Source of the DNA: a virus
Lineage: Duplodnaviria > Heunggongvirae > Uroviricota > Caudoviricetes
Virus record (IMG/VR): IMGVR_UViG_3300045988_181214
Length of the DNA stretch: 43,968 bases
Strand: one strand, 5' to 3'
Made by a program: the position numbers and the translations under genes. Below are positions 159 through 16,659 of this stretch, piece by piece; position 1 is the first letter of the stretch, and each line of letters starts with the position of its first letter. Under the pieces are notes generated by a model. That model was not told where the DNA came from and ran no database searches. It worked only from the letters and a program-made list of their open reading frames with translations.

Positions 159-160
159 AT

Positions 161-207
161 ATCGGGTAAGAAGTTGGAAACAACATTCTTATCCGATTTT
201 CCGTTTT
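161..207 (+). terminator. Rho-independent terminator downstream of tRNA (phage-supplied copy)
   Basis: 12-bp stem ATCGGGTAAGAA / TTCTTATCCGAT (one G-U pair), 13-nt loop, then TTTTCCGTTTT. Confidence 0.5.
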
Positions 208-274
208 GGGGAGGGACGGAAGCGAAATACTTTATTGTTGAATATCATTGGCTGGCAACGGACAATGAAAAAAA

Positions 275-1438: not shown

Positions 1439-1495
1439 TCTCCTCGATGAGGTGGTGTCGTGGCTTCGCTGGTTTGTGTTTGATGAGTAGCGAAG

Positions 1496-3394
1496 TTACG
1501 ACATCATATAAAAATATCCTGTATAGATAGGCTCAATCTGGTCATCCTTGACCTCCATCTCTATTTTTTCGCATACGAATTTTTTGTTGTGTATGATGTA
1601 TGTGTGAGATGGGTCAGGGATGGTATCAGATTGAAATTTTACCTGAAGGCAGTTTTTGTTGTCTATCTTGAGACCGCTGTCGTGGAGCTCACCCAAACAG
1701 GTTCCTGCTTGCCAAGCCTTGTTTAGGGATAGGGAAGCCATCAGAACGGTTGGAAACGTGCCAATATTGCCAGGATCGAGCAACTCCATCCTATACATGG
1801 AATTGATGCGGCTGTCAGTCATGAACTGCGGCCATCTGGACTTCTCCCCTACCCATGAGACGTTGCCATTGAGTGGGTGTTCGTATTTTTGAACTTTGCC
1901 AGGCACTATGAAAAACACATTCATGCACTCCTGGTCATCCTCGGAATCATCCAAGGTGGACTCATCATCGATGGCATCCTGTATGGAGACGTAGTTGTAG
2001 CCATCCTCGTCTGTGTCGCTCTCTTTGGCTTCGGCTTCTTTGTCGTTTGGCATAGACAGGAGGCAGCGCCATTCGCTGTGTTTACCCTCAAAAAGAAAAG
2101 ACCTAAAGCTAACATTTTCCACGACCTGTGCTGCTGGGGATATGTTGAGGTCTGTGTAATCATCGGAGGAGTTATCCCTTATCAGTGGCGACCAGACACC
2201 AGCCAACTGCCAGCTCTTGTTGCCGTCGGTATCCTCGACATATATATAATAATCGCTGCCCAGATGACGGATGATGGTGGTGCGCTTCTTCTTCTCGGAC
2301 CATCCACTGGTAGTGGCAGGAAACTGAAAGTTGGTACCAACGGCTGTCTCGAACGAATCGACTATATCGAAATTATCAAAAACTTTTTTGGGAATGACTT
2401 CGTAATCACCTCTGTTGGCTGAGTCGCCTAAGTTGTACTGCAGGTTGGCTGTCGATGAGGTTGAGAACGAACCATCGGCATCGTAGTCGGTGGTGTACTC
2501 GTCGAGTGTCTCTATCTCTACGGAGTCGGCGGATGATAGCTCTGAGGACTTGATGACCTGACAAGTCTTTTTGATGTCGTCGAAGTATATGGTGGCGTTG
2601 AAGAGCTTGCGGAACTCCTCGATGAAGGTGTAGCTAGTCCAATGAGGAAGGGCACGGCGAAGCTCTAGGGTCTTGAAGGCGGAGGCGATGTAGAGCAAGT
2701 TCCATGGAGAAACATCGAGGTCGTTGCGTGTGAGGGTGTAGCCCTCGTAGGCGATGACTCGCTTGAAGATGTACATCAGGTTGGGCTGCACGGCGACGTT
2801 GCTGATGTATGGATCTTTGCTGCCTATGAAATTGCCCGTGCGGTCAACGCCCACGAAATTGGCTATCATGTCGTTGGTCTCGTCTCTGACTGGCATGAAG
2901 CACCACTTGCCCTGCTCGCCCAGAAACTTGCTCTGGTCGGCGACGAGCCTATAGACGGATTGAACCTTGGGGATGTTTTTCCAGCCCTGTGAAAAACCTT
3001 TATCTACCGTATAGCCTGGTGCGGATGCCTTGCCGAAGTCTATCTCGTCGATGTAGTGCTTGGTCATCTTGTCGTTGAACTTGATGCGAGACTTGCCGCC
3101 CACTATCTGAAGCTTTATCTCAGAGTCGGTGACGCTGATGATGGTACCCACGCCAGAGAGTACCAGGCGACCGCTCACGTAAAGCTTGCAATCGTTGTAG
3201 GTCTGGGTGGATTTGGAGACATCGAAGCGGCTCACGTTGTGGAAAACTCGGCGGTTGGGCATTATTGCCATGGGGAAATTGATGTCGTAGGAGTATTCGC
3301 CATCGTCGGTGACGTATTGGTTGGCGTATGTGAGCTTGATGGATTGGCTGGCAGCCGGATAGGCTGCCATGCCATTGATGATGCATGTTATCAT
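1496..3394 (-). CDS. Phage tail protein immediately downstream of TMP (distal tail/tip protein candidate)
   Basis: 632-aa ORF, ATG start, 33 nt after TMP stop; position typical of distal tail or tail-tip proteins; acidic segment near C-terminus. Confidence 0.5.
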   Translation of the reverse strand: MITCIINGMAAYPAASQSIKLTYANQYVTDDGEYSYDINFPMAIMPNRRVFHNVSRFDVSKSTQTYNDCKLYVSGRLVLSGVGTIISVTDSEIKLQIVGGKSRIKFNDKMTKHYIDEIDFGKASAPGYTVDKGFSQGWKNIPKVQSVYRLVADQSKFLGEQGKWCFMPVRDETNDMIANFVGVDRTGNFIGSKDPYISNVAVQPNLMYIFKRVIAYEGYTLTRNDLDVSPWNLLYIASAFKTLELRRALPHWTSYTFIEEFRKLFNATIYFDDIKKTCQVIKSSELSSADSVEIETLDEYTTDYDADGSFSTSSTANLQYNLGDSANRGDYEVIPKKVFDNFDIVDSFETAVGTNFQFPATTSGWSEKKKRTTIIRHLGSDYYIYVEDTDGNKSWQLAGVWSPLIRDNSSDDYTDLNISPAAQVVENVSFRSFLFEGKHSEWRCLLSMPNDKEAEAKESDTDEDGYNYVSIQDAIDDESTLDDSEDDQECMNVFFIVPGKVQKYEHPLNGNVSWVGEKSRWPQFMTDSRINSMYRMELLDPGNIGTFPTVLMASLSLNKAWQAGTCLGELHDSGLKIDNKNCLQVKFQSDTIPDPSHTYIIHNKKFVCEKIEMEVKDDQIEPIYTGYFYMMS

Positions 3395-3427
3395 AAACTT
3401 ATCATAAATGAGGTTTGATGAAAACCG

Positions 3428-6400
3428 TTATTTGTTTGACTTCATTTTTTGATATTGGCTCCATTGGCGGTCGAAGCCATCGGGGCCGGTGATGACCACG
3501 TATGACTTGATGCCAGCGTTGAGCTGCTCGTTGAGTCTGTCGATGGTGGTATGCACGCTATCGAGGGATGCGCCCATCTGCTCGGTGTCGCCACCTGAGA
3601 CGTTGACCACTGGGGCGACCACGGCTGCGCTGCCTGTGCCCATGGCACGGCTCACGTCTTGGGCGGTGAGCGAGGCGACCGTGTTGTTGCGCTGCGCCAT
3701 ATCGATGAGCTGCAGGGCAGGGAGGAGCTGAGGATTGTTGACGGCGTTGTGGTTGGCGACGAACTCGCCAGCGTGAACCACGCCAGCCTCTTTCTTGTAA
3801 TTGCCAGGACCAGTGAAACCACCCTCGTAATAGCCAGCCGCCTCTGCCTGGTGCTGCTTTTTGATTGTTGCTATCTGGAGCATGCCCGCTGCGGTGGCGA
3901 GACCTGCGGCGATAGGACCAAGGATGTGACCCACCACTGGGATGGCTGCGGCTGATGAGTAGGCGTTGATGGCAGCCATGGCGGTTGAAGCTATGGCTTG
4001 TGCGATCTCTATCTTCATCGCCTTTTTGTTGGCCTTGCTCTTGGCTGCAGCCACCTCTTTGTCTCGCTTCGCCTCGAGACGCTTTTTCTTGGCTGAGTTG
4101 TTGCCAGCGGCAGAAATCTGCTTATCGTAGTTTTTCTCAATCTTGGCGACCTCTAGGTCTGAGCATGCCTGGGAGTAGGCGGAGGCAGCGCCCATCATCG
4201 TGTTGATGCTGCTGAAGGCAGCGCCAGCGATGGAGGCTATCTCTTGATAGGTCTCTTTGTTCATCTGCTTTTTGGCATCCTGGTATTGCTGCTCGCTGAT
4301 TTTATCCTCGTCTCGAAGATTTTTGAGGTTATCGTTGACCATCTTTTGCTGTTGGATGGCTGCGATGGCACCACCAGCGATTGTGGCGAGGTTGTCGCTG
4401 CCCATGGCATTGTTGCTGTCACCATTGCCCTTGGTCATCTTTTTGGCGGTGTCGAGGGCGGTGTTGGCATCCTCCTTGCGCTGCTCATCGGCGGTTGGCT
4501 TGTATGAGGCGTATTTGTTGGCGATGCCCATCTTTGTGCGCTGGTATTCCTCCTCTCTGATGAGACCTGCCTTGTAGATGGCTTCGAGTCCCTGCAGATC
4601 TAGCTGCATCTGCTCTTCGTTGCCGAGCTTGCCGTATTCTTGGCGCAGCTGAAGGAGTTGCTCGTCGTGCTGCTTCTGAAGGTCGTATTTGCGTTGCTGT
4701 TGGGTCAGCTCTCGCTCTTTCTCGATCTGGGCATACTCGTCAGATGAGGAGAGGTAGAGGGCTTGCTTTTTGTTGAGATAGTCCTGGTATGAGAGGAAGA
4801 GAGCCTCGTTGACGGCATCCTCATTGTGATAGAGGTTGGAGTCTTTGTTGTAGTAATCGGCATTGAGCTTCATTTCTTTTTTCTGTCGCTCGGTCTCCAG
4901 GGCTTCGAGGTCGGCGGTCTGCTTTTTCTCGTAGTCGGCGGCGATATTCTCTTTCTCAGCGTTCAATCGCTTGAACTCTTCGCTCTCTGCCTCGCCATAC
5001 TTTTTGAGGATGTCGAGGCGAGCCTGAAGCCCCTGTTCTTTGATATTCTTCATCTTCTCGTTGTATTCGGCGAGTCGAATCTGACCTGTAGCGTAGAGGG
5101 TCTTGGCATCGAGCTCTTCGGCTTGGTTGGCTTTCTTTGCATCGTCTAGCTCTTTTTTCATGTCAGCCTTGCGCTTAGCCTCTGCCTTGCGAGCGGCAGC
5201 CTCACGTTTCTTTTTCTCCTTTTCGGCAGCTTTGCGCTCTTTCTCGGTCATGGTATGACCAGAGGAAGGGGTGGTGTGTGTCTCTGTAGTTGCGCTATTG
5301 TTTAGTAAATTCTTCTTTACAGTCTTGTTGTACTGTTTCTGCAAATTTACGTTTTTCTCTAATTGCTGATTATAGAAATTCTCTTCAGCATTGACTTGCT
5401 TTTGCAGGCTTAGGTTTGCCTGTAGTCTTTGCGTATGAACTTGCTTTTGCTTCTCGTTACTCTTCAGTGCCTCGTTTTGTTCGATGAGCTGACCTGTCCA
5501 TCCATCAGCCACGGCATTGCTCTCATATTGCTTAGGATGAGCCTTGCGCTCAGCATCGACAGCCTTCAGCGAATATCGTATGCGGCTTTCTTTTTGTTTG
5601 AGTTCCAGTTTCTTTTTATTGATTTCCACCTTGCGCTCATAGATGGCTTCTGCCATGGCAGCATTTTCTAGCTCCTTGATGTAGTTTTGGATGGCAATCT
5701 GGTTGTCGTTATACAACTTGCCCTCTTTGGAGATAGAGGCGTGATATTCTGGGACGAGCTTTATCATATTTGCGATAGCTTGCTTTCGCTCGTCAACGGT
5801 ATAGGCATTGGAGTGGATAACCTTGTTGAGCATATCGACCTTGTTGCGCTCATCGAGGGTAGCATCAGACACCTTTTTGGCGAGGCTGGCTTGAGCCTCT
5901 GCCACTGCTCTGTTGTTTTTAGCCTCTTGCGTGTTGTTGCGCATCGCCTCGTTGTAAGATGTTATGGCTTTGTATGCCCCATAGGCAGCCACGCCCACCA
6001 CGGTGATGACTGTGGCGAGGGCAGCCCATGGATTGGTGAGACTTGCTAGGCGTGCTGCCCTCATCACCACGATGTAGCCCTGTATGCCTTTTGTGAGATA
6101 AGCCCATGTGGCTTGCAGTGCCACTAAGGCAGCACGCAAGAGTGTAGATGTAGCGGTATAAGCTTTATCGACAGCTGAAGCGTATTGTACGGCGGCTGTT
6201 TTAATCTTAATGGCGATGGTCTCCTTGTACCAGAGAGCAGTACAAACAGCGATGGCTGTTGACAGCACGGCTATTTGTTTTGCATAGGTGACGGTGAAGG
6301 TGATGAGCGTGGACATGACCTTTATGGTCAGACTGAATGATGTGATGCCATATTTCATGGCAGGGATGAGTTTTTCTCCGAGTTCGATGGTGAGGTCTTG

Positions 6401-7774
6401 GAATCGCTTCTTGGCTTTGTCTAGTTCTGCCTGTACCGTTGTATTCTGGGTATTGAACTCATTGATGACACTGGTACCGTCGGCATACGACTTGGTGGCG
6501 ATGTCTTGCGCCTCTTTCACTTGGTCGAGGTGTGTAGCCACGGCGGAGAGAACGCCCACGGCACGGGTGCCGTTAAGCTGCATCTCCTCAAACATCGGTG
6601 CCATCTCGGCGAAACCTCCCTTTGACTTCATCGCTTGCATGAACTTCATCAAGCCCTCATTGGCGTTGGTCTTCATCAGGTTGGAGAACTCCTTGACCTG
6701 CATGCCCGCTATCTTGGCGAACTTGGCTGGCTCTTGGTACATCTTGGTGATGAGCTGTGAGAAGACGGTGGCGGAAGTCGCCTCCTCTTGCATGTTTTGG
6801 TCGAGGGCAGAGGCGAGACCCATCAGCTGTGCCTGGGTCATGCCGGCCTGGATGCCGACACCTGAGAGGTCGGCGGTGAAATCGACGATGTAGCCAGCGT
6901 TTGCAGATGAGCTTTGTGCCAGCTCATTGACGGCGGAACCTGTGGCGAGCATCGCACCACGAAGGCCTTTGGTCTTATCCTCACCAAACATCTGGGCGAG
7001 CTTGCCGATTTTATCGACCGCCCCCTTGCCGAGGTCATCGCCGAGGGTGACATTGATTTTGTCGGCACCATCAACGAACTCCTCGATCATCTCTTTGCTG
7101 GTGATGCCGAGGCGACCGGCAGAGCCAGCCAGCTCGTTGAGCTGCTCACGAGCTGTGCGGGTATCCATGCGCTTGAAGTCCTCGTTCATCTGATGAACCT
7201 GTTCGTCGGTCTGACCGGTGTATTTGCGCACGTCTGCCATCGACTCCTCCATGTCGGCATAGGCTTGGGCTGCAGCTCTCAAAGTAAGAGTGAGTGTGGT
7301 GAGACTGCCCAGTATCTGGGTGAAGGCACCCCAGTTTTTGTTAAGACCATCCCACATTCTAGAGAACAAACTTCTGGAAGCTTTACCTTCGTCGTTGATG
7401 TGCTGCATCTCTGCTCGCACTTGCTTTAATTGCTTTTGCAGTTTTTTCCATTCGTCTGAGTTGCGCTTGATGGCACCGCTTTTCAACTCTCTGTTGAGAG
7501 CCTTGGCGACTAGTTGCAGCTCCTTGTATGATGCAGAAGAAAGATTGTTGAGAACTTGGTTAACCTTCTCTTGGCTAGTCATGTATGCTTTTGTCTCAGC
7601 CTTTAATCTCTTTATCTGTCGTTCGAGGGCTGTTGTTGACTCGCCCTTTGCATAAGCCTCGTCTCTGGCTTTTTGCACTTCTTTCAGCTTGTTTTGCAAT
7701 TCGTTGAGTTTATCCTTAGCCTCTTTGGTGTCAAGAATAACTCTGCTAACATGGGTATCTGTATTTGTTGCCAT
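3428..7774 (-). CDS. Tail tape measure protein
   Basis: 1448-aa ORF; long Lys/Glu/Gln-rich coiled-coil N-terminal half, central hydrophobic helical block, Ala/Gly-rich C-terminal region. Confidence 0.8.
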   Translation of the reverse strand: MATNTDTHVSRVILDTKEAKDKLNELQNKLKEVQKARDEAYAKGESTTALERQIKRLKAETKAYMTSQEKVNQVLNNLSSASYKELQLVAKALNRELKSGAIKRNSDEWKKLQKQLKQVRAEMQHINDEGKASRSLFSRMWDGLNKNWGAFTQILGSLTTLTLTLRAAAQAYADMEESMADVRKYTGQTDEQVHQMNEDFKRMDTRTAREQLNELAGSAGRLGITSKEMIEEFVDGADKINVTLGDDLGKGAVDKIGKLAQMFGEDKTKGLRGAMLATGSAVNELAQSSSANAGYIVDFTADLSGVGIQAGMTQAQLMGLASALDQNMQEEATSATVFSQLITKMYQEPAKFAKIAGMQVKEFSNLMKTNANEGLMKFMQAMKSKGGFAEMAPMFEEMQLNGTRAVGVLSAVATHLDQVKEAQDIATKSYADGTSVINEFNTQNTTVQAELDKAKKRFQDLTIELGEKLIPAMKYGITSFSLTIKVMSTLITFTVTYAKQIAVLSTAIAVCTALWYKETIAIKIKTAAVQYASAVDKAYTATSTLLRAALVALQATWAYLTKGIQGYIVVMRAARLASLTNPWAALATVITVVGVAAYGAYKAITSYNEAMRNNTQEAKNNRAVAEAQASLAKKVSDATLDERNKVDMLNKVIHSNAYTVDERKQAIANMIKLVPEYHASISKEGKLYNDNQIAIQNYIKELENAAMAEAIYERKVEINKKKLELKQKESRIRYSLKAVDAERKAHPKQYESNAVADGWTGQLIEQNEALKSNEKQKQVHTQRLQANLSLQKQVNAEENFYNQQLEKNVNLQKQYNKTVKKNLLNNSATTETHTTPSSGHTMTEKERKAAEKEKKKREAAARKAEAKRKADMKKELDDAKKANQAEELDAKTLYATGQIRLAEYNEKMKNIKEQGLQARLDILKKYGEAESEEFKRLNAEKENIAADYEKKQTADLEALETERQKKEMKLNADYYNKDSNLYHNEDAVNEALFLSYQDYLNKKQALYLSSSDEYAQIEKERELTQQQRKYDLQKQHDEQLLQLRQEYGKLGNEEQMQLDLQGLEAIYKAGLIREEEYQRTKMGIANKYASYKPTADEQRKEDANTALDTAKKMTKGNGDSNNAMGSDNLATIAGGAIAAIQQQKMVNDNLKNLRDEDKISEQQYQDAKKQMNKETYQEIASIAGAAFSSINTMMGAASAYSQACSDLEVAKIEKNYDKQISAAGNNSAKKKRLEAKRDKEVAAAKSKANKKAMKIEIAQAIASTAMAAINAYSSAAAIPVVGHILGPIAAGLATAAGMLQIATIKKQHQAEAAGYYEGGFTGPGNYKKEAGVVHAGEFVANHNAVNNPQLLPALQLIDMAQRNNTVASLTAQDVSRAMGTGSAAVVAPVVNVSGGDTEQMGASLDSVHTTIDRLNEQLNAGIKSYVVITGPDGFDRQWSQYQKMKSNK

Positions 7775-7796
7775 AATTGAATATTTTATTTTATGG

Positions 7797-7804
7797 CAAA
7801 GGTA
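7797..7804 (-). promoter_or_regulatory. -7 promoter element (TAccTTTG) for the TMP operon
   Basis: Minus-strand TTACCTTTGCC 23 nt upstream of TMP ATG, just after a terminator hairpin. Confidence 0.45.
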
Positions 7805-7808
7805 ATAA

Positions 7809-7850
7809 GGAGGAAAACATAATAAAAATACGAGACCGTATGTATTGCGG
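7809..7850 (-). terminator. Intrinsic terminator hairpin (13-bp stem) with T-tract
   Basis: AAATACGAGACCG / CGGTCTCGTATTT inverted repeat; on the minus strand followed by TTTTTATTAT; the 20-mer ATAATAAAAATACGAGACCG is repeated at 10321-10340. Confidence 0.55.
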
Positions 7851-7858
7851 TCTCGTAT

Positions 7859-8200
7859 TTACTTGGTTATCTCTTGCTCTTTTTTAAAGAACTCGTATGC
7901 AAGATTGTTTGCATCCCAAACAAGATATTTCTTGTTGGTGTTTCTGAGTGTCTGTTTATCACCTGTTATGGAGTTTGCTATCGTGACGCAGAAGAATCTG
8001 CCTCGCTTTACGATTTCGGTTGCCGTATTGTTTGGCGATGCCAGTCTTATAGGCTCGTCAAAATTCTCATCAAAAGTATCAAACAATGGTTCGGAAGCCA
8101 CTGTGGCTGGGCAAGAACTATTGCCAAGCTTGTCGAGACCTTTGAGGAGTGCAACTGTTATAATCGCTAGTATCCAGCATCCAAATATAGTCGTAATCAT
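7859..8200 (-). CDS. Small membrane/secreted protein (hypothetical)
   Basis: 113-aa ORF from first ATG (track ORF 7859-8398 begins at an alternative start); N-terminal hydrophobic helix MITTIFGCWILAIITVALL; promoter motif 30 nt upstream. Confidence 0.5.
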   Translation of the reverse strand: MITTIFGCWILAIITVALLKGLDKLGNSSCPATVASEPLFDTFDENFDEPIRLASPNNTATEIVKRGRFFCVTIANSITGDKQTLRNTNKKYLVWDANNLAYEFFKKEQEITK

Positions 8201-8229
8201 AATTTGTAAGTTTATTATTATCTTTGTTG

Positions 8230-8237
8230 CAAATTTA
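8230..8237 (-). promoter_or_regulatory. -7 promoter element (TAaaTTTG)
   Basis: Minus-strand TAAATTTGCAAC ~30 nt upstream of ATG at 8200. Confidence 0.35.
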
Positions 8238-8422
8238 ATAATAATATTTGGAATATGCAAGTATTTTGTGTTAAATCTTTGATTTGTTTTGCGGTATGGT
8301 GGAAAAATATTATATTTGCAGTGGCAATTTAATTTTAGAAAGTATGAATAAAGATTTTGCTTTAATATTGGTAAACATAATATGCGCCTTAACGGCATTT
8401 GTTTGTATGATAATCACTATTG

Positions 8423-8779
8423 TTATTTCATTAGTGAGATTATAATAGTAATACACATAGATGCGATTGTAATAATCGTGCAAATGATATTGATATATTC
8501 TTTGTATTCTTTCAGAAGTGTCAGTCTCTCCTGTCTTCTCTTCTGTTTGTTATAGCCTTTCTTGGCAGCATTCTCCCCTTGTGGTGTCAGCTTATAATAA
8601 GCTTCTCCCCACTCATAAACAAGTCCCTCGTCTTGAAGTGATTGTAGAACATCGTATGGCTCAATGTCATATCCATACGTATCATTTATAGCACTGTGTA
8701 CATCGTCTTTGTTAGGACTACCTTCTAAGAACTGGCTTAAAATGAAATCTGCGATTTCTATTTGCTTTTTAGTCATCAT
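8423..8779 (-). CDS. Hypothetical protein with C-terminal transmembrane anchor
   Basis: 118 aa from tandem ATGs (track ORF starts at GTG 8863); C-terminal INIICTIITIASMCITIIISL hydrophobic helix. Confidence 0.5.
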   Translation of the reverse strand: MMTKKQIEIADFILSQFLEGSPNKDDVHSAINDTYGYDIEPYDVLQSLQDEGLVYEWGEAYYKLTPQGENAAKKGYNKQKRRQERLTLLKEYKEYINIICTIITIASMCITIIISLMK

Positions 8780-8793
8780 AATCAAATAAAAAC

Positions 8794-8831
8794 GGCTCGT
8801 GCATCGGGAGGGCAGTCCTTCAGCACGAGCC
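8794..8831 (-). terminator. Leader hairpin plus U-tract between promoter and start codon (terminator/attenuator-like)
   Basis: 9-bp stem GGCTCGTGC / GCACGAGCC, 20-nt loop; on the minus strand followed by GTTTTTATTTG just before ATGATG. Confidence 0.35.
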
Positions 8832-8914
8832 ATTAACAGCTGTATATCTTTATGTCTTGCCACTCATGAGACCTGCCCGAATCATGTTTGACATCATTGT
8901 CTTTAAATATGGTG

Positions 8915-8922
8915 CAAAGATA
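8915..8922 (-). promoter_or_regulatory. -7 promoter element (TAtcTTTG)
   Basis: Minus-strand TATCTTTGCACC between the spanin-like gene and the 8423-8779 gene. Confidence 0.4.
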
Positions 8923-8962
8923 GCGCTTTTATCTGAATGCACCAAATGATTTTACGAAAACT

Positions 8963-9574
8963 TTATTTCACCACCTCTATGTATCTCGAGTAATCAATCT
9001 TGGAGTGGGGATTGTGGCTGACTATCTGCACCTGATAGCCCTTGGTGCCCCATCGCCACCAGAGGAACTTGTGGCGGTAGGTGCGGCTCACGATGGTCGT
9101 CAGGCTGTCTCGAGACGAGTACTGGCACTCTCGCTTGGGGATGTCGATATGGAGGGAGAGCCATTGGTCTCGGTAGGTGTAGATGGAATCGGGGATGCCG
9201 GAACCAGCCACGGCGGCGGTCGGTTCGGGCGTGAGATAGACCGTATCGGCGGTGGTTGACGAAACTGTGTGGATAGACTGCACATCTTTGAGCCGCACTT
9301 TGAGGTCTTTGATGAGCTTGGTATCGGCGAGGTGGAGCTTTTGCAGCTCGTCGTATTTCGACTGAAGGGCGTTGAATATGGCGACATTGAGAGTGTCTCT
9401 CACGTTGGCATATTCAATGTCGTAGTTGAGGTTGGCTACGTTGTAGCTCTGTCGGTCGAGGTCTGCCTGAAGCTGCTCGCACTTGTTGGCGGAGTGTATG
9501 AATGCGACTGCGGTCACGATGAGCAGGGCTGCCAGAAGCTGGATGATAATCTTGGGTGTAATCTTTTTTGTCAT
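8963..9574 (-). CDS. Membrane-anchored coiled-coil protein, possible lysis accessory (spanin-like)
   Basis: 203 aa from ATG; N-terminal signal-anchor KIIIQLLAALLIVTAVAFI then coiled-coil; directly downstream of the endolysin. Confidence 0.4.
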   Translation of the reverse strand: MTKKITPKIIIQLLAALLIVTAVAFIHSANKCEQLQADLDRQSYNVANLNYDIEYANVRDTLNVAIFNALQSKYDELQKLHLADTKLIKDLKVRLKDVQSIHTVSSTTADTVYLTPEPTAAVAGSGIPDSIYTYRDQWLSLHIDIPKRECQYSSRDSLTTIVSRTYRHKFLWWRWGTKGYQVQIVSHNPHSKIDYSRYIEVVK

Positions 9575-9603
9575 TGTCTTTTTGAAAATGATTGGTGAGT
9601 GAG

Positions 9604-10029
9604 TTATGCGATGTCTTTGTATTCGTCGATGGCATTGAAGCAAGGACACATCTTCTTCCATTTGGACTTGTCCTTGCCCCAGATGTCACGATGGCCCATT
9701 ATCTGGGCATCTGGGAATTGTTGCTTCAGTTTGTGGAGTAGCAAAACGAGGGCGTCTTTTTGCTCTGGTGTGCGGTTGTCGATAGCCTTGCCCTTAGCGT
9801 CGATGCCACCGATATAGGCGACGTTGATGGCTGTGGAGTTGTAGCCCTGCACGCCGTTGCTCACCTTTTCGATGGCTAGGAGTTGGTGGATGCCGCCGTT
9901 TGGGGCGATGACGTAGTGATAACCTGGATTGGTCCAGCCCTTGCGGCGGAACTCTGCCTTGAGGTCGTCGATGGACTGGCTTTGCGACCCTGCGGTGCAG
10001 TGAACGAAAATGCGTTTAATCTGTCTCAT
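9604..10029 (-). CDS. N-acetylmuramoyl-L-alanine amidase (endolysin)
   Basis: 141 aa from ATG; motifs IFVHCTAG, GYHYVI, NSTAINVAYIGG, HRDI...CPC typical of amidase_2/PGRP-type lysins. Confidence 0.75.
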   Translation of the reverse strand: MRQIKRIFVHCTAGSQSQSIDDLKAEFRRKGWTNPGYHYVIAPNGGIHQLLAIEKVSNGVQGYNSTAINVAYIGGIDAKGKAIDNRTPEQKDALVLLLHKLKQQFPDAQIMGHRDIWGKDKSKWKKMCPCFNAIDEYKDIA

Positions 10030-10270
10030 TATTTTGCTTGTTATGATTGAACAATTTGTTTTTGATGTTGTCGAACTTGGCATCGATGGCGATGGCTACG
10101 CCGAAGATGGAGCCGGCATACATGAGCGACTGGGCAAAGTACCAGAGCACATTGTCGGTGACATCACGAGCCTGGGAGGTGAAGTAACTGATGTAAACCA
10201 GTATGATGGCGAGGAGGAGCACGGCGATGGCTGAGCCGTATTGTATCCATTCTTTAGTATTTCTCTGCAT
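10016..10270 (-). CDS. Holin
   Basis: 84-aa protein with two hydrophobic helices and a charged C-terminus; overlaps the start of the amidase gene. Confidence 0.6.
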   Translation of the reverse strand: MQRNTKEWIQYGSAIAVLLLAIILVYISYFTSQARDVTDNVLWYFAQSLMYAGSIFGVAIAIDAKFDNIKNKLFNHNKQNNETD

Positions 10271-10297
10271 GGTGAATCTTGTTTTTGTTTTACAGTG

Positions 10298-10305
10298 CAA
10301 AGATA
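10298..10305 (-). promoter_or_regulatory. -7 promoter element (TAtcTTTG) for the lysis cassette
   Basis: Minus-strand TTATCTTTGCACT 28 nt upstream of holin ATG. Confidence 0.45.
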
Positions 10306-10320
10306 AGAAGGGTAGGGTGA

Positions 10321-10358
10321 TAATAAAAATACGAGACCGCCCTAACGATCTCGTATTA
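10321..10358 (-). terminator. Intrinsic terminator hairpin with T-tract
   Basis: Stem ATACGAGA / TCTCGTAT with a 12-nt loop, followed on the minus strand by TTTTTATTAT; shares an identical 20-mer with 7809-7828. Confidence 0.5.
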
Positions 10359-10370
10359 TATGTTTAACTG

Positions 10371-10778
10371 TTAGACCTCTCTTGAGAGAATCTCCTTGGC
10401 TATCTCTTTGGCCTCTTTGCGCCACGACTGATAAGCCTCGAACTCTGCCTCGTGAGTCTCGTCGCCATCGCCACGGTTGGCTAGGATGGCCTCTACCTGG
10501 TTTTGGCTGTATCGGGTGCGAACCAAACCAGCGGTGAAATCGTCGTAGGTGGCTGCGGTCGCCTGAATCTTGGTCGAGCCATCAGGCTCTGTGCCCTCAT
10601 AGCTGTAAGCAGTGACACCCTCGGAGTTTTCATCTTCTGACTGCTCTGAGGTATCGGAAGAGCCTGTAGCGGCCTCAGGGTGATAGTTTTCAACTTTCTG
10701 CTCACCAGTGTAGAGCAGATAATGGTTATCGTCATATTTGACGAAGCTCTTGCGAGCTAGATAATACTTCTTGTTCAT
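10371..10778 (-). CDS. Hypothetical acidic protein co-transcribed downstream of the DGR RT
   Basis: 135-aa ORF, ATG start 7 nt after RT stop; Asp/Glu-rich; no recognisable motif. Confidence 0.5.
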   Translation of the reverse strand: MNKKYYLARKSFVKYDDNHYLLYTGEQKVENYHPEAATGSSDTSEQSEDENSEGVTAYSYEGTEPDGSTKIQATAATYDDFTAGLVRTRYSQNQVEAILANRGDGDETHEAEFEAYQSWRKEAKEIAKEILSREV

Positions 10779-10784
10779 AATTGA

Positions 10785-12359
10785 TCACGTGAATTTATAG
10801 AACTTCTTTTTGAATTTATTGTGAAGCTCTGCGACCACGGTGGAGAAGGGTAGCTCATCACGACAGAAGTCGTTGAGGGCTTGGTCTATCAAGATCTTGG
10901 AGCCTGTATAGAGGTAGTGCTCCAGAGGTTGCCATACCTCGGTGCCGTCTGGCTCCAGGTGGTCGATGATGCGATAGCGTAGGGAGAGGCGCTTCTTGGG
11001 CACCTCTTTGGTGACCATGTGGGTGGAGCCGTCCGGGGCGGTCTCCTCTTGCTGGATGGTCTCCTTCTCTATCACCGAGTCATCGACCTTGTAGTCTATC
11101 ACTTGAACGAGGAACTTGTTCTCGTCCTGACCCTCACGGCAGATGATGTCCTCGATGGACTGCTGCTGTGATTTCTCCATACCGTCAAAAGGCACGCGCG
11201 CACGGCGAGCCTTGACGAGTTTACCGAATCTTTCCATACCGATTTTCTTATATAAGTTTTTAGAGTTTGCGTGGATGCCCAGACCTAGGCGAGAGGCTGC
11301 CTTGAGCTGTATCTGGCGGTCTGTGAAGCCCGCCTTGCGTAAGTTGGCGATCTGTCTGCAGAGGTCGTGCTTGAACCGCTTGCGCAACAGGGCGTGGTCG
11401 GCGTAGATGATCTGACCGCATAAGTCGATGCCATCGCAGGTGCGGTGGATACCCCAAGACTTATTGATGGATAGGTGCCAGTCACGGGCGAGGTGCATCA
11501 CGGCAAGCTCTGCCATCAGCCTGAGGAACACCTTATCCTCGTGGAGGATGTAGATGTTGTCCATGAAGCGGTAATAATGGCGAAGACCTTGGCGGCAGAA
11601 GCGCTCGAACCTATCGTTGAGCGACTTCACTCCCCCGCATAGCAGTTGAGCTTGCTGCTGAGTGCGACAGGTAACGAGCATGTCGCTCACGTAGCGAGCC
11701 TGCCAGTAACGGAACTTGTCGGTGTCTTGGAGAATGTCGAAGCATCGGAGTGCCAGGTAATCGAAGCGGGCGAGGAAGAGCTGACCCAAGAGTTGGGCGA
11801 GCTTGACGCCGAGCACGATGCCTGGATTGAAGCTATCGACCACCTCGTCGATGAAGGCGAGGAGCTTGCGGTCTTTGATCTTGCGGCGATATTCACTTTT
11901 GAGAAGAGCGTGGTCTATGCTCTGAAAATAATGGTGAATATCCATGGGCAAGCAGTAGAAGGTATCTTGCTGTGGCGAGTTGAAGATGTCTCGCTTGACA
12001 AGATTATAGAAATAATGGGTGCCCTTGCCCTTGGAACCAGCCGGACTGTGGCTGTAGAGTGTCTTGCGAAGGTTATCCTCTACAGGTTGCAGGGCAGCGT
12101 GCTGGATGACGTGGTCGATAACGGGCAGCTTGTTGACTTGGCGATGTTTTGGATAGTCGATATCTTTGGCGACATAGGCTGAGGTATGCCAAGTTTGTTG
12201 GGTGTAAGCATCGAGCATGCGTCCGATGTTATGGTCTAGGTTTGCCTCGAATTTTTGGACCGCACGGCGAGACATCTTTTGTCGGGCGTAGTCATAGAAT
12301 GCCCGACGAAAGTTGTCTAGTGTCTCGACCTGTAGCGATATGTTGCCAAACCTTTTCAT
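10785..12359 (-). CDS. Reverse transcriptase (DGR-type), catalytic motif non-canonical
   Basis: 524 aa from first ATG (track ORF starts at GTG 12428); RT motif 2 SPAGSKGKGTHY, motif A LPMDIHHYFQSIDH, motif B-like GIVLGVKLAQLLGQLFLARFD; sits 208 bp downstream of the template repeat. Confidence 0.8.
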   Translation of the reverse strand: MKRFGNISLQVETLDNFRRAFYDYARQKMSRRAVQKFEANLDHNIGRMLDAYTQQTWHTSAYVAKDIDYPKHRQVNKLPVIDHVIQHAALQPVEDNLRKTLYSHSPAGSKGKGTHYFYNLVKRDIFNSPQQDTFYCLPMDIHHYFQSIDHALLKSEYRRKIKDRKLLAFIDEVVDSFNPGIVLGVKLAQLLGQLFLARFDYLALRCFDILQDTDKFRYWQARYVSDMLVTCRTQQQAQLLCGGVKSLNDRFERFCRQGLRHYYRFMDNIYILHEDKVFLRLMAELAVMHLARDWHLSINKSWGIHRTCDGIDLCGQIIYADHALLRKRFKHDLCRQIANLRKAGFTDRQIQLKAASRLGLGIHANSKNLYKKIGMERFGKLVKARRARVPFDGMEKSQQQSIEDIICREGQDENKFLVQVIDYKVDDSVIEKETIQQEETAPDGSTHMVTKEVPKKRLSLRYRIIDHLEPDGTEVWQPLEHYLYTGSKILIDQALNDFCRDELPFSTVVAELHNKFKKKFYKFT

Positions 12360-12567
12360 AAGCGGTGTAATGTCTGTGTTGAACGGTGTATAAACTGTGT
12401 ATAGTCTGAATCGTCTGCTTTTGTACACTTGATAACCTTCGACCGGATGACCGTGTTGTCATCATCTACCAGCTGTCTTATTAATGTGTATGTATCGCCA
12501 TGGGGCGAGGATTGACCCTGTAATCTCGAAGTGGGAGCAAACGACCCACGAAGAGATATGTCTGTAA

Positions 12568-12689
12568 GTTGAGGGCGGCGCCGTAGTTCACATTGGCATT
12601 CGAGACAGCATTGTTCACGTTGAGCGTTGAAAGACCGCATTGACCACCATTGTTAGCGTTAGCACCACGAAGGCAGACACGAAAACCGG
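12568..12689 (-). repeat. DGR template repeat (TR), noncoding
   Basis: 122 bp matching 12979-13100 at constant offset 411 with no indels; 9 mismatches, all at T on the plus strand (A on the transcribed strand); Asn (AAC)-rich in the target frame. Confidence 0.85.
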
Positions 12690-12723
12690 CACCTAGGGTC
12701 ACACCCTGGTATCATAACCGCCG

Positions 12724-12731
12724 CAAAGGTA
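12724..12731 (-). promoter_or_regulatory. -7 promoter element (TAccTTTG) upstream of TR-RT
   Basis: Minus-strand ATTTTTATTACCTTTGCGG ~35 nt upstream of the TR. Confidence 0.45.
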
Positions 12732-12927
12732 ATAAAAATAATCGGTATGGAAGCATGTCAAAGAGCTTTTTTGATGTTTTTATTGATATTTTTTTTGTCG
12801 CCGACCGCCACAGGCGGTAACTTAAGGCGAGCTACGCTCGCTGGGTGCTTCGGCTTCGCCGAGGGTGCTCAGGTCTCTTTTGCACACCCAGTAAACCGAT
12901 GCACACCCAGCAAACTGATGTAGTCTC

Positions 12928-14400
12928 TTAGGCCGCCTCGTAATACACGGGTTCAACGGACCACTCGGATGCTGCTTCGCAGAGGGCGGCGCCGCAGTTC
13001 ACATAGGCATTCGAGACAGCATTGTTCACGTCGAGCGTAGAAAGACCGCATTGACCACCATCGTAAGCGCTAGCACCACGAAGGCAGACACGAAAACCGG
13101 ATGTAGCACCAGACGTATTCCAGAAATAGCTAGTCCAGTAGGTTGACTCGGATGCGCCCGTAGCGGTCGGGAAGTTCTCTAGATGCTCCATCGAGAGCGT
13201 CTTGATATAGCCTTCGCCCTTGGTCGGCGAGGTGCTGTAAGCCACCATGCCATCGGTGGAACCTATCGTCCACGTGCCGTAGATGGACGGTGCCACGAGA
13301 TGGGTCACGGAAGTGTCCTCGTTGCAACGCACCTGCTCGTCATCCATGTGTCGCCACAATAAGCCGAAGCCATTTTTGTAGCCGAAGAAGGATGGTATCT
13401 TGGCGGTATAGACCACGGTGCCATCGTCTTTTTTGACCTCGTAGCTCGCCTCGCCGCAAGCGTCGCCAAGCTCGATGCCAGCCGACATCGGCACGACAGG
13501 GCGATAGCCGTTGTAACCACCCCAATCAGGCATCTGTGTCACGCCAGCGCCGAGACCACCCTGGTAGAGACCGTTGGCATCTTTTTGGCTGTTGACGGCA
13601 TCCTGGTCGTAGTGGGTGCCGAAGATGACCCCGAAGAGCACGGAGATGGCAGAGGTGTGGCGCATGGTGGTGCAGAGCCAGCCTGTGCCGTTTTTGCGGG
13701 CAGCAGCACGCCAGTATTCGGTAGTCTGGTTGGTGGCAGCCTTGCCCAGCATGGTGCGGTTGGTGTTATCTAACGTGGAGTCGTTGTTGCCGCCTCGGTA
13801 GTTTGTGCCCTCGTTGATGTAGCTCACCAGCTTGCCTGTGCTGCGCTCTAGCGTGGCGAAGCCAGCGGCGGAGATGCTGCCCACAGGTATCTTGTAATTG
13901 TACTCGCCTGGTATCGGCGTAGGGCTGACCATCTCGTAATGGAGTCTGCCCACGGTCTTGATGACCATGTACCACTCCTTGCCCCAGCCCCACTGGTAGT
14001 GCCCCTCTGAGCCATCGAGCTTGGCTGTCTCGCCGGTGGCATACTTGTGGTGGTCTTTGGAGTCGAGCTTGCGACGGGAGTGGTCATTCTTGACCAGATA
14101 ACAGCCCAGACCCAGCTCCGTTGGTAGGGTCTGCAGTAACTCTAGCGAGCCCACATAAGTGGCGGCTTTAGGGGTTGCATTGTCGAGGTTCCACACTCGA
14201 CCACACCAAGGATGCTGTCCCATTTGGACGGCGCTTTTGAGCGACATCTGCTCAGACCTGCCGGATTTTTTGTCGAAGACCTCGACAATCTTGTCAGTGG
14301 CGCTCATGTCTGACTGTGGGAGGTCGTCAACCTGTTGACCTCCATCGAAAGCGGCTATGATAGCCTTGAGCTTACTCTCTTCTTCTGATGTTAATGCCAT
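12928..14400 (-). CDS. DGR target protein: tail-fibre / receptor-binding protein with C-terminal variable region
   Basis: 490 aa from ATG (track ORF extends to 14448); VR occupies the last ~40 codons; lies within the tail-fibre gene block. Confidence 0.75.
   Translation of the reverse strand: MALTSEEESKLKAIIAAFDGGQQVDDLPQSDMSATDKIVEVFDKKSGRSEQMSLKSAVQMGQHPWCGRVWNLDNATPKAATYVGSLELLQTLPTELGLGCYLVKNDHSRRKLDSKDHHKYATGETAKLDGSEGHYQWGWGKEWYMVIKTVGRLHYEMVSPTPIPGEYNYKIPVGSISAAGFATLERSTGKLVSYINEGTNYRGGNNDSTLDNTNRTMLGKAATNQTTEYWRAAARKNGTGWLCTTMRHTSAISVLFGVIFGTHYDQDAVNSQKDANGLYQGGLGAGVTQMPDWGGYNGYRPVVPMSAGIELGDACGEASYEVKKDDGTVVYTAKIPSFFGYKNGFGLLWRHMDDEQVRCNEDTSVTHLVAPSIYGTWTIGSTDGMVAYSTSPTKGEGYIKTLSMEHLENFPTATGASESTYWTSYFWNTSGATSGFRVCLRGASAYDGGQCGLSTLDVNNAVSNAYVNCGAALCEAASEWSVEPVYYEAA
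12979..13100 (-). repeat. DGR variable repeat (VR) at the 3' end of the target gene
   Basis: Encodes the C-terminal ...GFRVCLRGASAYDGGQCGLSTLDVNNAVSNAYVNCGAALC of the target; matches the TR except at template-adenine positions; GC-rich 3' end GCGGCGCCGCCC (IMH-like). Confidence 0.85.
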
Positions 14401-14422
14401 AATAAAAATTATATTTAATCGA

Positions 14423-15187
14423 TTAAACAATGCGTAATTTATCACCAACTTTTCTAAGCTTGCCCGATGCCGACAGGCGAAGGCGAGGCTGGCGCACGGT
14501 GATGCTGACCTCTTGCCAGAGCGGTGTGTTGGCGGTGGGGATGACCCAGAACTTGGTGGTGCCCTCGCCCTTGATGATGAGGTTGCCGCTTGGGTCTGCC
14601 ACGAGCGAGTCGCCCTCGGCTCGCTGGAAGAGCACGCTCTGAGGGAGGTAGCTCGGCAGGATCTGCACGGCGATGCGCAGAGCCACCTTGTTGCGTAGGC
14701 TTATCTCGGGGAGATAGGTCAGGTTCATGCGAGCTGGCGCGATGAAGCCTGTGGTTATCTGAGCGGCGAGACCATCCATCTGCGCTATCTTGGCATCGGC
14801 TCGCTTGGATGCCGCGTCAGCCTCTGCAGCCTTGGTCTCTGCCAAGGCTGCCTGTGATGCTGCAGCCTCGCCCTGCTCGCCAGCCGCCTTGGCTGCGCTC
14901 TGGGCGAGGTTAGCCGCCTTGTTGGCATCGTCGGCCGCACCCTGCGCTCTGACGGTCGGTGTCTTGTCGAGCCACAAGCGCCACTTGGCGTTGGTATCTG
15001 AAGGAGTCGTCGTGTTGCCATCCTCTAGGGAGGCGAAGACTCCTGACGATGTGTGAACGATGTCGCCCTCGTCGTAGCCCTTGACGGTCTGGCCATCCTC
15101 ATCTTGATAGGAGTAGCCCGACTGCCAGGTGCCCTGGTCGGTGAAGGCGACATTGCCCACGATAATGATGTTTGTGTTATCTGCCAT
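14423..15187 (-). CDS. Tail fibre-associated protein (Ala/Gln-rich coiled region)
   Basis: 254-aa ORF, ATG start; central AAKAAGEQGEAAASQAALAETKAAEADAASKRADAKIA repeat-like segment. Confidence 0.5.
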   Translation of the reverse strand: MADNTNIIIVGNVAFTDQGTWQSGYSYQDEDGQTVKGYDEGDIVHTSSGVFASLEDGNTTTPSDTNAKWRLWLDKTPTVRAQGAADDANKAANLAQSAAKAAGEQGEAAASQAALAETKAAEADAASKRADAKIAQMDGLAAQITTGFIAPARMNLTYLPEISLRNKVALRIAVQILPSYLPQSVLFQRAEGDSLVADPSGNLIIKGEGTTKFWVIPTANTPLWQEVSITVRQPRLRLSASGKLRKVGDKLRIV

Positions 15188-15193
15188 AATGAT

Positions 15194-16036
15194 TTATACT
15201 TTAATGACTAACTTGTTTCTGCGCTTGACAACGTGTTCAGCGACATGACTGCCGTAGTCGATCATGAGGAGTTTGTTGCGCCGTTGACGGAACGCCGGAT
15301 ACATGGCACCGCCTCGGGCGATGACTCCTGTATCGACATAGGTGTGCTTGGAGAGATCCCACTGCCACCAGTTGCCGTTGTCGCCCATCTTGGGTGGATG
15401 GTCGTTGAGCTCCTGGGCTAGGTTGGTCTGCTTCTCGCTCTCGGTGAGGGCTGTGAGCGTATCATCGATGCGCTTGTTCTCGGCGGTGACACGACCCGCC
15501 TCGGCGGCTATGCGAGCATTTTCGGCTGTCGCTCGCTTGATCTCTGAATCCATGCGAGCTTGCTCTTGGGACTGTCGGGTCTGCTCGGCAGCTTGTCTCT
15601 TGGCCTCGTTGCTCTCAATGGCAGCCTTGGAAGAGAGCGTGGCTTCGGTCGCCTGTTTGGCAGCCTCGGTCTGCGACTTGCTGGCACTGACCGCATCCTC
15701 TACCTTTTTGCGTTCGGCGGTGAAGTCAGTTGTCGCCTTGTTGACGCTAGCCGCCGCATCGTTGGCTTTGCCAGCTGCGGTGTTGGCCTCCTCTGTCGCC
15801 TGTTTCGCCTCCTCGATGCGGATATCCACATCTTTAGTCAAGAGTGACAGCGGTGCGATGACTTGCTTTTGCACACCGTCTTTGCTGTAGAGGGCGGGCA
15901 TCGTACTGATGCCATCGAGCGAGGTGGCGAGCTCGCAAGAGAAGATGTTCTTGCTGTGCCGCTGTAGATATTCGTTGAACTTAGGTAAGAGCCGGGCGCA
16001 TAGCGCCTCGAACTCTGTGTCATTCTCTATGCCCAT
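15194..16036 (-). CDS. Tail fibre-associated coiled-coil protein
   Basis: 280-aa ORF, ATG start; long Ala/Glu/Lys/Thr-rich coiled-coil. Confidence 0.5.
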   Translation of the reverse strand: MGIENDTEFEALCARLLPKFNEYLQRHSKNIFSCELATSLDGISTMPALYSKDGVQKQVIAPLSLLTKDVDIRIEEAKQATEEANTAAGKANDAAASVNKATTDFTAERKKVEDAVSASKSQTEAAKQATEATLSSKAAIESNEAKRQAAEQTRQSQEQARMDSEIKRATAENARIAAEAGRVTAENKRIDDTLTALTESEKQTNLAQELNDHPPKMGDNGNWWQWDLSKHTYVDTGVIARGGAMYPAFRQRRNKLLMIDYGSHVAEHVVKRRNKLVIKV

Positions 16037-16039
16037 AGG

Positions 16040-16336
16040 CTATGATTTTAAGATGTCCTGTTTCCACTCGGCAATCTTGGCGAAGACAGCCCCTGCCTCT
16101 TCATCGCTCAGCACGGCAGTGTTGATGCGACATGAGAGGTTGGTATCCATAAAGCTGATGTATCCAGCACCGCTCTCGGAGGCTGGTGCATCATCTTTGG
16201 ACTCTGTACGTTTATAGACCTCACCGGAAAAAGAGACCTTGTCATCTCGCTTTGTCTTGGTGAACTTGACGAAAACGCCTGTAACAACCTCAATCTCCTG
16301 GATGTCGGTTGTCGTAACTGTTGACTCTACCTTCAT
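16040..16336 (-). CDS. Hypothetical phage protein
   Basis: 98-aa ORF, ATG start, tightly packed in operon. Confidence 0.45.
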   Translation of the reverse strand: MKVESTVTTTDIQEIEVVTGVFVKFTKTKRDDKVSFSGEVYKRTESKDDAPASESGAGYISFMDTNLSCRINTAVLSDEEAGAVFAKIAEWKQDILKS

Positions 16337-16338
16337 AA

Positions 16339-16641
16339 TTAATCTTGCTCTATTAGTTTAACAATCTGACAATATACCCCTGGCACCAAGGAAGCCTTGG
16401 CGACCTCTTTGATCATGGTTAAGTCTTCGGTCGTACACTCGACCTCACTTGGTTTAGTGTGCATCTGCACACTCAGGTTGTAGGCTCTCTTAAGAGACTC
16501 ATCATCAGCCTTGACGCTGTTATTGCTTCCGTTGAACAGATGAAGTCCGAGCACCTCATTCATCATCTGAGGCTGTCCGTTGCTGTCTGTCATCACCCCG
16601 CCCCTGTAGTTACGGATGGCGACCTTAAAATTTCTTTTCAT
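16339..16641 (-). CDS. Hypothetical phage protein
   Basis: 100-aa ORF, ATG start, 18 nt downstream of the large tail protein gene. Confidence 0.45.
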   Translation of the reverse strand: MKRNFKVAIRNYRGGVMTDSNGQPQMMNEVLGLHLFNGSNNSVKADDESLKRAYNLSVQMHTKPSEVECTTEDLTMIKEVAKASLVPGVYCQIVKLIEQD

Positions 16642-16659
16642 ATCTGTCTAAGTTTAAAA

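Follow-up and report, generated by a model that had tools for sequence, protein, structure and literature searches.

We analyzed a 43,968-nt stretch of viral DNA (IMG/VR record IMGVR_UViG_3300045988_181214; hereafter the window), in which an identical 20-mer occurs on either side of a lysis cassette, each copy lying within a short element that joins a hairpin to a pair of promoter-like boxes. Nearly all long open reading frames (ORFs) are on the minus strand; a tRNA-Met gene (83-158) adjoins an integrase gene (275-1438, plus strand), the two marking a prophage end and its likely attachment site, and a gene for a Cro/CI-type helix-turn-helix (HTH) repressor (42941-43318, plus strand) faces a promoter-like site at 42855. 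With its integrase, tRNA-Met and Cro/CI-like repressor, the window is a temperate tailed phage. The elements, labeled here sites A to D, and the related promoters are arranged as follows.

7819-7838, minus strand: 20-mer copy 1, CGGTCTCGTATTTTTATTAT, an exact match, covering the 3' arm of hairpin A and the upstream box of the promoter
7826-7860, minus strand: site A hairpin of 13 bp, with 5' arm 7860-7848 (AAATACGAGACCG), loop 7847-7839 and 3' arm 7838-7826
7822-7831, minus strand: site A GTATTTTTAT box at the -33 position, which would double as the U-tract of hairpin A
7797-7804, minus strand: site A -7 box TACCTTTG, ahead of the ATG of the tape-measure gene at 7774
3428-7774, minus strand: tape-measure gene, 1448 aa, first of the site A operon (phrog_25337, 1.7e-51; PF10145)
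10320-10339, minus strand: 20-mer copy 2, an exact match
10328-10357, minus strand: site B hairpin, with 5' arm 10357-10346 (AATACGAGATCG), loop 10345-10340 and 3' arm 10339-10328
10323-10332, minus strand: site B GTATTTTTAT box
10298-10305, minus strand: site B -7 box TATCTTTG, with TATCTTTGCA at 10305, ahead of the ATG of a holin-like gene at 10270
25549-25581, minus strand: site C hairpin of 14 bp with loop GUGAU, fused to the promoter box (-23.0 kcal/mol, z -4.06)
25519-25553, minus strand: site C promoter, GTATTTTTAT at 25553-25544 and TATCTTTG at 25526-25519
20156-20190, minus strand: site D promoter with no hairpin, GTATTTTTAT at 20190-20181 and TATCTTTG at 20163-20156
37114-37148, minus strand: head-operon promoter with no hairpin, GTTTTTTTAT at 37148-37139 (1 mismatch, same register) and TATCTTTG at 37121-37114
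41971-42005, minus strand: sixth candidate, GTATTTTG at 42005-41998 (canonical TTTG, same register) and TAATTTTG at 41978-41971, with a 994-aa gene downstream

At site A the gene before the hairpin ends in a stop codon (7861-7859) that overlaps the hairpin's base; the hairpin folds at -18.3 kcal/mol (z -6.95) and is followed on the minus strand by UUUAUUAU, TACCTTTGCC at 7804 and the ATG at 7774. The preceding stop codon at site B (10373-10371) lies upstream of the hairpin, which folds at -17.2 kcal/mol (z -4.96) on the minus strand and at -12.2 kcal/mol on the plus strand and includes one U-G pair that is paired in minus-strand RNA only. When positions 1-20000 were ranked for terminator-like structures, first place went to the plus-strand reading of the site A stem and second place to site B. 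The stem of site C stands 90 nt downstream of a stop codon and ahead of a gene (ATG 25495) for a 353-aa protein of unknown function, and at site D a single base separates the stop codon (20194-20192) from GTATTTTTAT, with the ATG of a 1159-aa gene at 20139. The head-operon site, which precedes the ATG (37090) of the head maturation protease gene (37090-36065), is probably a fifth member of this set, and the site at 42.0 kb, judged from the window itself, is a possible sixth; the window thus holds three fused hairpin-promoter copies (A, B and C) and two or three promoter-only sites.

Much of this layout had been anticipated by a sequence-only reading of the window, which placed a -7 element and then an operon start after each of two hairpins. 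That arrangement was confirmed at both sites (7804 before ATG 7774; 10305 before ATG 10270), and the gene at 7774 does encode a tape-measure protein (the PHROG match above and Pfam PhageMin_Tail). The recurrence it saw at 25519-25581 was borne out with the same layout, whereas the one at 20156-20190 has both boxes, ATTTTTAT and TATCTTTGCA, and its fold (-7.0 kcal/mol, z -0.83) makes no credible hairpin.

Written on the plus strand, the 20-mer is ATAATAAAAATACGAGACCG and has exactly two copies in the window, 7819-7838 and 10320-10339; no third copy was found in the window, even at 3 mismatches, and two matches were reached in 0 of 100 dinucleotide shuffles. The repeat first reported is therefore real, but its positions had been given as 7809-7828 and 10321-10340, off by 10 and by 1. 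On the minus strand it supplies the 3' arm and T-run of a hairpin. On the coding strand CGGTCTCGTATTTTTATTAT is made up of CGGTCTCG and TATTTTTATTAT: 12-13 nt are a promoter box with its AT-rich tail (GTATTTTTATTAT), and the other 7-8 nt (CGGTCTC) belong to the inner 3' arm. From this composition and the comparisons below, the 20-mer is very probably the overlap of a terminator hairpin with the upstream box of a strongly conserved Bacteroidetes-type phage promoter, and with equally high confidence we read the elements at 7.8, 10.3 and 25.5 kb as composite terminator-promoters, a reading that draws on motif, spacing, conservation, pairing with covariation, and one recombinant.

Relatives of the window were fetched in two ways: by the 20-mer and, free of bias toward it, by protein homology to the amidase, the head protease and the products of the genes that follow sites C and D. 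All 32 of the 20-mer matches in viral contigs lay at homologous promoter sites. Among 185,579 species genomes there was a single match, within a coding region of a Cyclobacteriaceae metagenome-assembled genome (JALONI010000016.1, locus L247); as it comes without hairpin or promoter box, we rejected it as a cassette and regard it as a chance hit. These counts bear on the proposal that the 20-mers are a functionless, neutral footprint, namely direct repeats that arose when the lysis cassette was inserted, traces of a small mobile element, or the product of a recent duplication. A 2.5-kb block between identical 20-mers with low G+C in its right part (0.41, 7001-9000), together with a segment (8962-8286) specific to the window lineage, would suit such an origin. 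Yet every relative examined, including those with unrelated or no site B sequence, has the lysis cassette immediately before the tape-measure gene, so the two 20-mers do not bracket an insertion; the site A 20-mer is unchanged where its flanks are only ~75% identical; terminal inverted repeats and target duplications were not found; and the species genomes gave only the one chance coding match. We consider a neutral footprint highly improbable, and both a miniature mobile element and an insertion of the lysis cassette between direct repeats were discarded as explanations, the former on the 32 homologous promoter sites and the chance nature of the host-genome hit, the latter on the constant position of the cassette.

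The promoter part of the element has the form GTATTTTTAT-N17-TA(tc)TTTGC(a). At the window sites 7804, 10305, 20163 and 25526 the distance from the start of GTATTTTTAT to TAnnTTTG is exactly 27 nt, of which 17 are spacer. Four of the eight minus-strand occurrences of TATTTTT stand exactly 26 nt (start to start) before TAnnTTTG, and these four are sites A-D; no such pair occurs on the plus strand of the window. The minus strand has 17 copies of the -7 motif TAnnTTTGC where 1.9 are expected, mostly in intergenic gaps before ORF starts, with a few copies within ORFs. The same spacing was counted across 216 protein-fetched loci (L031-L246, 1.06 Mb, gene strand), where 197 of 205 occurrences of GTATTTTT, in 85 distinct contexts, have the 17-nt spacer to TAnnTTTG, and other spacers of 8-29 nt are absent but for two hits at 9. 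Counted as distinct upstream regions anchored on the gene start, the box stands in register as follows.

Site A: GTATTTTT in register in 24 of 24
Site B: GTATTTTT in register in 26 of 28
Site C: GTATTTTT in register in 34 of 34
Site D: GTATTTTT in register in 21 of 22
Head-protease operon (variant GTTTTTTTAT): GTTTTTTT in register in 18 of 18

The A and T that follow GTATTTTT are conserved at 94% and 99% though they lie outside the search pattern, and relatives at site D keep the upstream stop codon followed by GCGTATTTTTAT even where the downstream protein is only ~57% identical. The register at -33 reads TTTTTA in the GTATTTTTAT class, with TTTA where TTTG is expected, and a TTTG variant also exists: relatives including L041 and L075 read GTATTTTTG, and the window site at 41978 reads GTATTTTG. 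The exact composite pattern was found in at least 120 viral-contig stretches and, among the matches listed, nearly all stand before homologues of the same four genes; with these and the copies at 7.8, 10.3 and 25.5 kb, the earlier suggestion of a reused transcription-punctuation cassette appears well founded, the reuse extending to more than 100 related viral contigs. A full-text literature search found no paper in which GTATTTTTAT occurs together with Bacteroid*. The 17-nt spacer itself is free sequence and often pyrimidine-rich, for example CCCTACCCTTCT and CTCCCCTTCCTTCC (window 10306-10319 and 25527-25540).

The hairpin is a more variable partner. Among relatives at site A, 15 have it fused to the box, and nine have a separate terminator with its own run of five or six T, followed by GGTATTTTTAT; at site B, 10 of 26 lack a strong hairpin and still have the box; site D mostly has no hairpin and the head operon has none, the box being present at both. 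As it is kept without a hairpin or with a separate terminator, GTATTTTTAT is a promoter element at the -33 position and not merely a terminator tail. What had been described as a T-tract would indeed act as a U-tract, but it is first of all a promoter box fixed 27 nt before TAnnTTTG.

An 11-bp inverted repeat at the head operon (ATATCTTTGCG at 37122-37112 and CGCAAAGATAT at 37101-37091) spans the -7 box and the leader and ends before the ATG at 37090. It is kept in relatives with compensatory changes (TATC/GATA vs TAAC/GTTA), and may serve as an operator covering the -7 box or as a start-masking structure in read-through RNA.

Every fused hairpin has a 3' arm ending in GTATT and a 5' arm that opens with (A)ATAC, so that the T-run of the promoter doubles as the U-tract of the terminator. 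The U-rich tract directly 3' of the stem is UAUUUUUAUUAU at sites A and B and UAUUUUUAUUUU at site C, in each case interrupted by A and partly paired with the A-run on the 5' side. Site C relatives fall into two stem-length classes, which one joint alignment had mixed and which were counted separately; they form 98.8% and 91.0% standard pairs, with six pairs in each changed on both sides. That pairing and covariation score was reached by 0 of 500 shuffles, and slid controls were 27-57% paired. The inner stems of site C differ wholly between lineages with pairing kept, and the loops are GNRA tetraloops (GUGA, GAGA, GCGA, GCAA and GGGA). The stem family that includes the 20-mer, ACGAGnnCG...CGGTCTCGT, has 20 variants with 34 G·U pairs, and in 18 of the 20 variants of this ACGAG...CGGTCTCG family the fold is more stable in the sense than in the antisense orientation. 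Its 5' arm varies between A and G and between C and U opposite a fixed U and G, in all four combinations, all of which pair, and its loop is 3-9 nt long.

Sense-strand G·U pairs and variable loops indicate that the hairpin forms in RNA of the transcribed strand, and speak against a duplex-DNA operator for a dimeric phage regulator placed just upstream of the -33 box, in which the RNA hairpin would be incidental. Such an operator would be at home at the observed position, as the palindrome centers ~20 nt before the -33-position box (~50 nt before the -7 box), a common position for activators, and the promoter-side 3' arm is far more conserved than the 5' arm. It is nevertheless very unlikely: with loops of 3-9 nt in one stem family the half-site spacing is not kept, changes of A to G and C to T in the 5' arm preserve G·U pairing in the sense RNA only and would break a DNA palindrome, the inner stems of site C have been swapped wholesale with compensatory changes, and the promoter box is kept without any repeat at site D and the head operon.

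An intrinsic (Rho-independent) terminator is a stable stem-loop followed by a U-run at the end of a transcription unit. The window elements have a stem-loop after a stop codon, a 5' A-run, a 3' U-run and tetraloops, differing in that the U-run is shared with the next promoter and interrupted by A. Because the hairpin follows stop codons and has a T-run, the simplest reading is that it would act as an intrinsic terminator for the upstream operon. A different role for the hairpin beside a genuine promoter, whether as a stabilizer of mRNA 3' ends, a processing site or an attenuator overridden by a phage antiterminator, with mostly read-through transcription, would fit operons that all run serially on one strand, a U-tract that is short and interrupted once the full stem is counted, and a hairpin that many site B lineages, site D and the head operon do without, so that punctuation is not obligatory. 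We regard this as unlikely, because each hairpin lies directly after a stop codon, the unfused ones have their own run of 5-6 T in the classic terminator layout (L035, L050, L116), and stems of -15 to -28 kcal/mol with GNRA loops are typical of terminators. A search of Rfam at the cassettes found nothing, the window hits being tRNA-Met and RT-17 RNA only.

With the hairpin as a terminator, the upstream operon would be stopped at an element whose 3' arm, ending in GTATT, lets the T-run of the promoter act as the U-tract, and the arriving polymerase would come off the template between the -33 box and the -7 box of the promoter that follows. Initiation would then take place a few bases past the -7 box, giving a leader of ~15-20 nt to the ATG. 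The promoter is the constant part, placed ahead of the head-protease, 25.5-kb, 20.2-kb, lysis and tape-measure operons, and the hairpin an optional, fast-evolving addition.

At site A in three relatives (L041, L073 and L078) the upstream ORF enters the terminator, its last codons (...N T R S) forming the 5' arm AAT ACG AGG TCG and its stop codon lying within the hairpin loop. Two further strong terminator-like hairpins on the minus strand, at 26859-26886 and 28337-28358, are not fused to a GTATTTTTAT promoter; the former has a GUGA loop and a TTTTCGTT tail, and the next promoter box (26759) is ~100 nt downstream.

Several observations weigh against parts of this composite reading. If the A-U pairs at the foot of the stem are included, what is left of the U-tract is short and broken by A (UUAUUAU), and termination may be partial. 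Site A of the window folds more stably on the plus strand (-23.1 vs -18.3 kcal/mol), so its strand assignment rests on the relatives. The invariance of the 3' arm is partly a matter of ascertainment, as the first 30 loci were fetched with the exact 20-mer. The invariant box is 10 nt long and the known -33 element 4 nt, so that it may be read by something besides the host sigma factor. The late-class label discussed below comes from gene content, with most of the genes unannotated, and termination and initiation, like the late timing and the identity of whatever reads GTATTTTTAT, are deduced from sequence. A test of flank reassortment, described below, was crude and gave no more exchange at site B than at controls: the excess was 2 at site B, compared with 5 at the boundary of DUF6549 and 1 at most control positions.

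Comparison between sites suggests that the hairpins move. The 5' arms of A and B are identical at 11 of 12 positions, and their loops and all sequence outside the hairpin differ. The arm xCGGTCTC is found in 14 distinct contexts at site A, seven at site B and four at site C (for example L169 and L261), and site D of L176 and site C of L167 have a near-identical whole promoter cassette, spacer included. The same arm at three sites and the near-identical cassettes lead us to view the hairpins as copies moving between cassette sites, most simply through recombination or gene conversion between the conserved promoter boxes; sites A and B have the extra 8 nt (CGGTCTCG) in common because the two hairpins are copies of each other.

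A cassette conserved among diverged phages can also be used as a crossover point, and one clean recombinant was found. To the left of the 19-mer at site B, over 1.5 kb, L054 is 94-100% identical to the window lineage and 73-79% to L041; to the right, over 1.4 kb, it is 94-100% identical to L041 and 66-82% to the window, the switch in parentage falling exactly in the shared 19-mer. For the reassortment test, 300-nt flanks on either side of the cassettes were clustered, with positions inside genes as controls. Reassortment was seen at sites B and D and none at A. As control positions gave similar values, we dropped the claim that the cassette is a recombination hot spot and kept L054 as the only example.

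The GTATTTTTAT class heads operons at 37.1 (as a variant), 25.5, 20.2, 10.3 and 7.8 kb, and possibly at 42.0 kb, and the gene content of these operons suggests a late or structural class. Other promoter-like sites lack the box (42855, 38882, 38262, 28215/28187, 26759, 12731, 8922 and 8237), among them sites near the switch region and sites located between head genes and tail-region genes. Two of these, in the regions 42855-42900 and 38262-38310, share CGTTAGT(T)ATTT and CCGATT before their -7 boxes and may belong to a second promoter class or mark a regulator site.

Whether a phage product reads the box can be approached through the gene list: a search of ~45 ORFs against PHROGs, Pfam and NCBIfam found no phage sigma factor or late activator, and the only regulator among them was the HTH protein at 42941-43318. 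A tentative and rather doubtful suggestion is that GTATTTTTAT is more than a -33 or UP-like element serving the host sigma factor, namely the recognition site of a putative phage-encoded late-gene factor. If it were true, one late regulon (head, tail-region, lysis and tape-measure genes) would unite a very large family of uncultured Bacteroidales gut phages, and the fused cassettes would be linkers for module exchange in temperate Bacteroidota phages, similar to elements of T4-type phages considered below. The host is probably a member of the Bacteroidales, judged by promoter type and distant named homologues. Named protein relatives (Prevotella, Segatella, Bacteroidaceae) are only ~40% identical; blastn of 7000-11500 against INPHARED gave weak partial hits only, matching no named phage, and tblastn of the 353-aa site C protein against named phages gave no hits.

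The promoter is of a known kind with an unusual upstream part. The -7 box matches the Bacteroidetes primary-sigma consensus exactly, a T-rich box occupies the -33 position, and the A-rich leaders are short, a TAAAA-like stretch preceding the ATG. In Bayley 2000 and Chen 2007 the -33 TTTG reportedly lies about 18-21 nt upstream of the -7 box. The window differs in its rigid 10-nt GTATTTTTAT and fixed 17-nt spacer in place of a loose TTTG, and usually in TTTA where TTTG is expected. The consensus itself, TAnnTTTG at -7 and TTTG at -33, is that of Bayley et al. 2000 as quoted in PMC7366714 and PMC2483708. Scans for sigma-70 promoters returned 21 and 26 sites against 17.6 and 16.0 expected, which is background level, and none at the cassettes.

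The closest functional analogue is found in T4-type phages, in the promoter-early stem-loops (PeSLs) of Arbiol, Comeau and Krisch (2010) and Comeau et al. (2014). These are repeated composites of a promoter and a terminator stem-loop that serve as crossover points (PMC2839356, PMC4122927). Like the window cassettes, they combine a strong promoter with a stem-loop in a small intergenic element that recurs within a genome and is conserved across diverged phages; the stem-loop of either kind can overlap the promoter's upstream box, and both are seen at crossovers between dissimilar sequences, here in the one clean case of L054. In contrast to the -33/-7 Bacteroidetes promoters of the window, PeSL promoters are early promoters of sigma-70 type (-35/-10), and their stems are often G4...C4. 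PeSLs flank orphan genes in hyperplastic regions of lytic myoviruses, whereas the window phage is temperate and its cassettes, only 4-6 per genome, head core operons (head, tail-region, lysis and tape measure). As promoter type, phage type and genomic role all differ, we rejected membership of the PeSL class.

The refinement reached here is a rigid two-box promoter with a fixed 17-nt spacer, on whose upstream box an optional terminator is fused and copied between sites; this putative stop/start signal would head tail, lysis and other structural-region operons in a large group of uncultured gut phages. For widespread gut Bacteroidales phages with mostly unannotated genes, the precise grammar GTATTTTTAT-N17-TAtcTTTGCA, with its optional fused terminator, would allow operon boundaries to be marked from the motif alone and the probable late class to be set apart from other promoters. 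Compact, insulated terminator-promoter parts suited to the Bacteroidetes machinery could be useful in the engineering of Bacteroides or Prevotella, and L054, as one clean case, would carry the notion that regulatory cassettes act as crossover points beyond lytic T4-type phages to temperate phages in a different phylum.

The lysis cassette between the 20-mer copies (7859-10270, minus strand) comprises the following genes.

10270-10016, minus strand: 84-aa membrane protein directly upstream of the amidase gene, matching phrog_8278, of unknown function
10083-9604, minus strand: N-acetylmuramoyl-L-alanine amidase
9661-8963, minus strand: DUF6549 protein
8863-8423, minus strand: lineage-specific gene, 146 aa, with its own TATCTTTGCA box at 8922
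8207-7859, minus strand: 113-aa N-terminally membrane-anchored protein, with a promoter at 8237 (TAAATTTGC)

The sequence-only reading had called the first gene a holin, which is plausible for an 84-aa membrane protein encoded before an amidase, but phrog_8278 lends the name no family support. Morons of lambdoid phages are insertions of promoter, gene and terminator. The block between the 20-mer copies resembles them in having its own promoter and terminator, and in its lineage-specific gene 8863-8423 with promoter 8922, but the lysis cassette as a whole keeps its position in all relatives and is no accessory insertion; it was rejected as a moron. The segment 8286-8962, with the 146-aa gene, has no DNA homology in relatives beyond the window lineage and looks like a moron-type insertion inside the conserved cassette. 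Next to it, an 88-nt block (8198-8285) is 85-92% identical in nearly all relatives, even between unalignable flanks, and holds the TAAATTTGC box (8237) and the start of the ~113-aa anchored protein, of which there are two divergent types; the ORF called at 7859-8398 is over-called, the true start probably being ATG 8207.

Just upstream of site B lies a diversity-generating retroelement (10785-14448, minus strand). Its gene 10785-12428 has a reverse-transcriptase PHROG match (2.1e-52) and no Pfam match. The variable repeat (12982-13100) is in the C-terminus of a tail-protein gene (12928-14448), and the template repeat (12571-12689), 94% identical to it, is preceded by the promoter-like box at 12731; the retroelement RNA is the Rfam RT-17 hit at 12411-12512.

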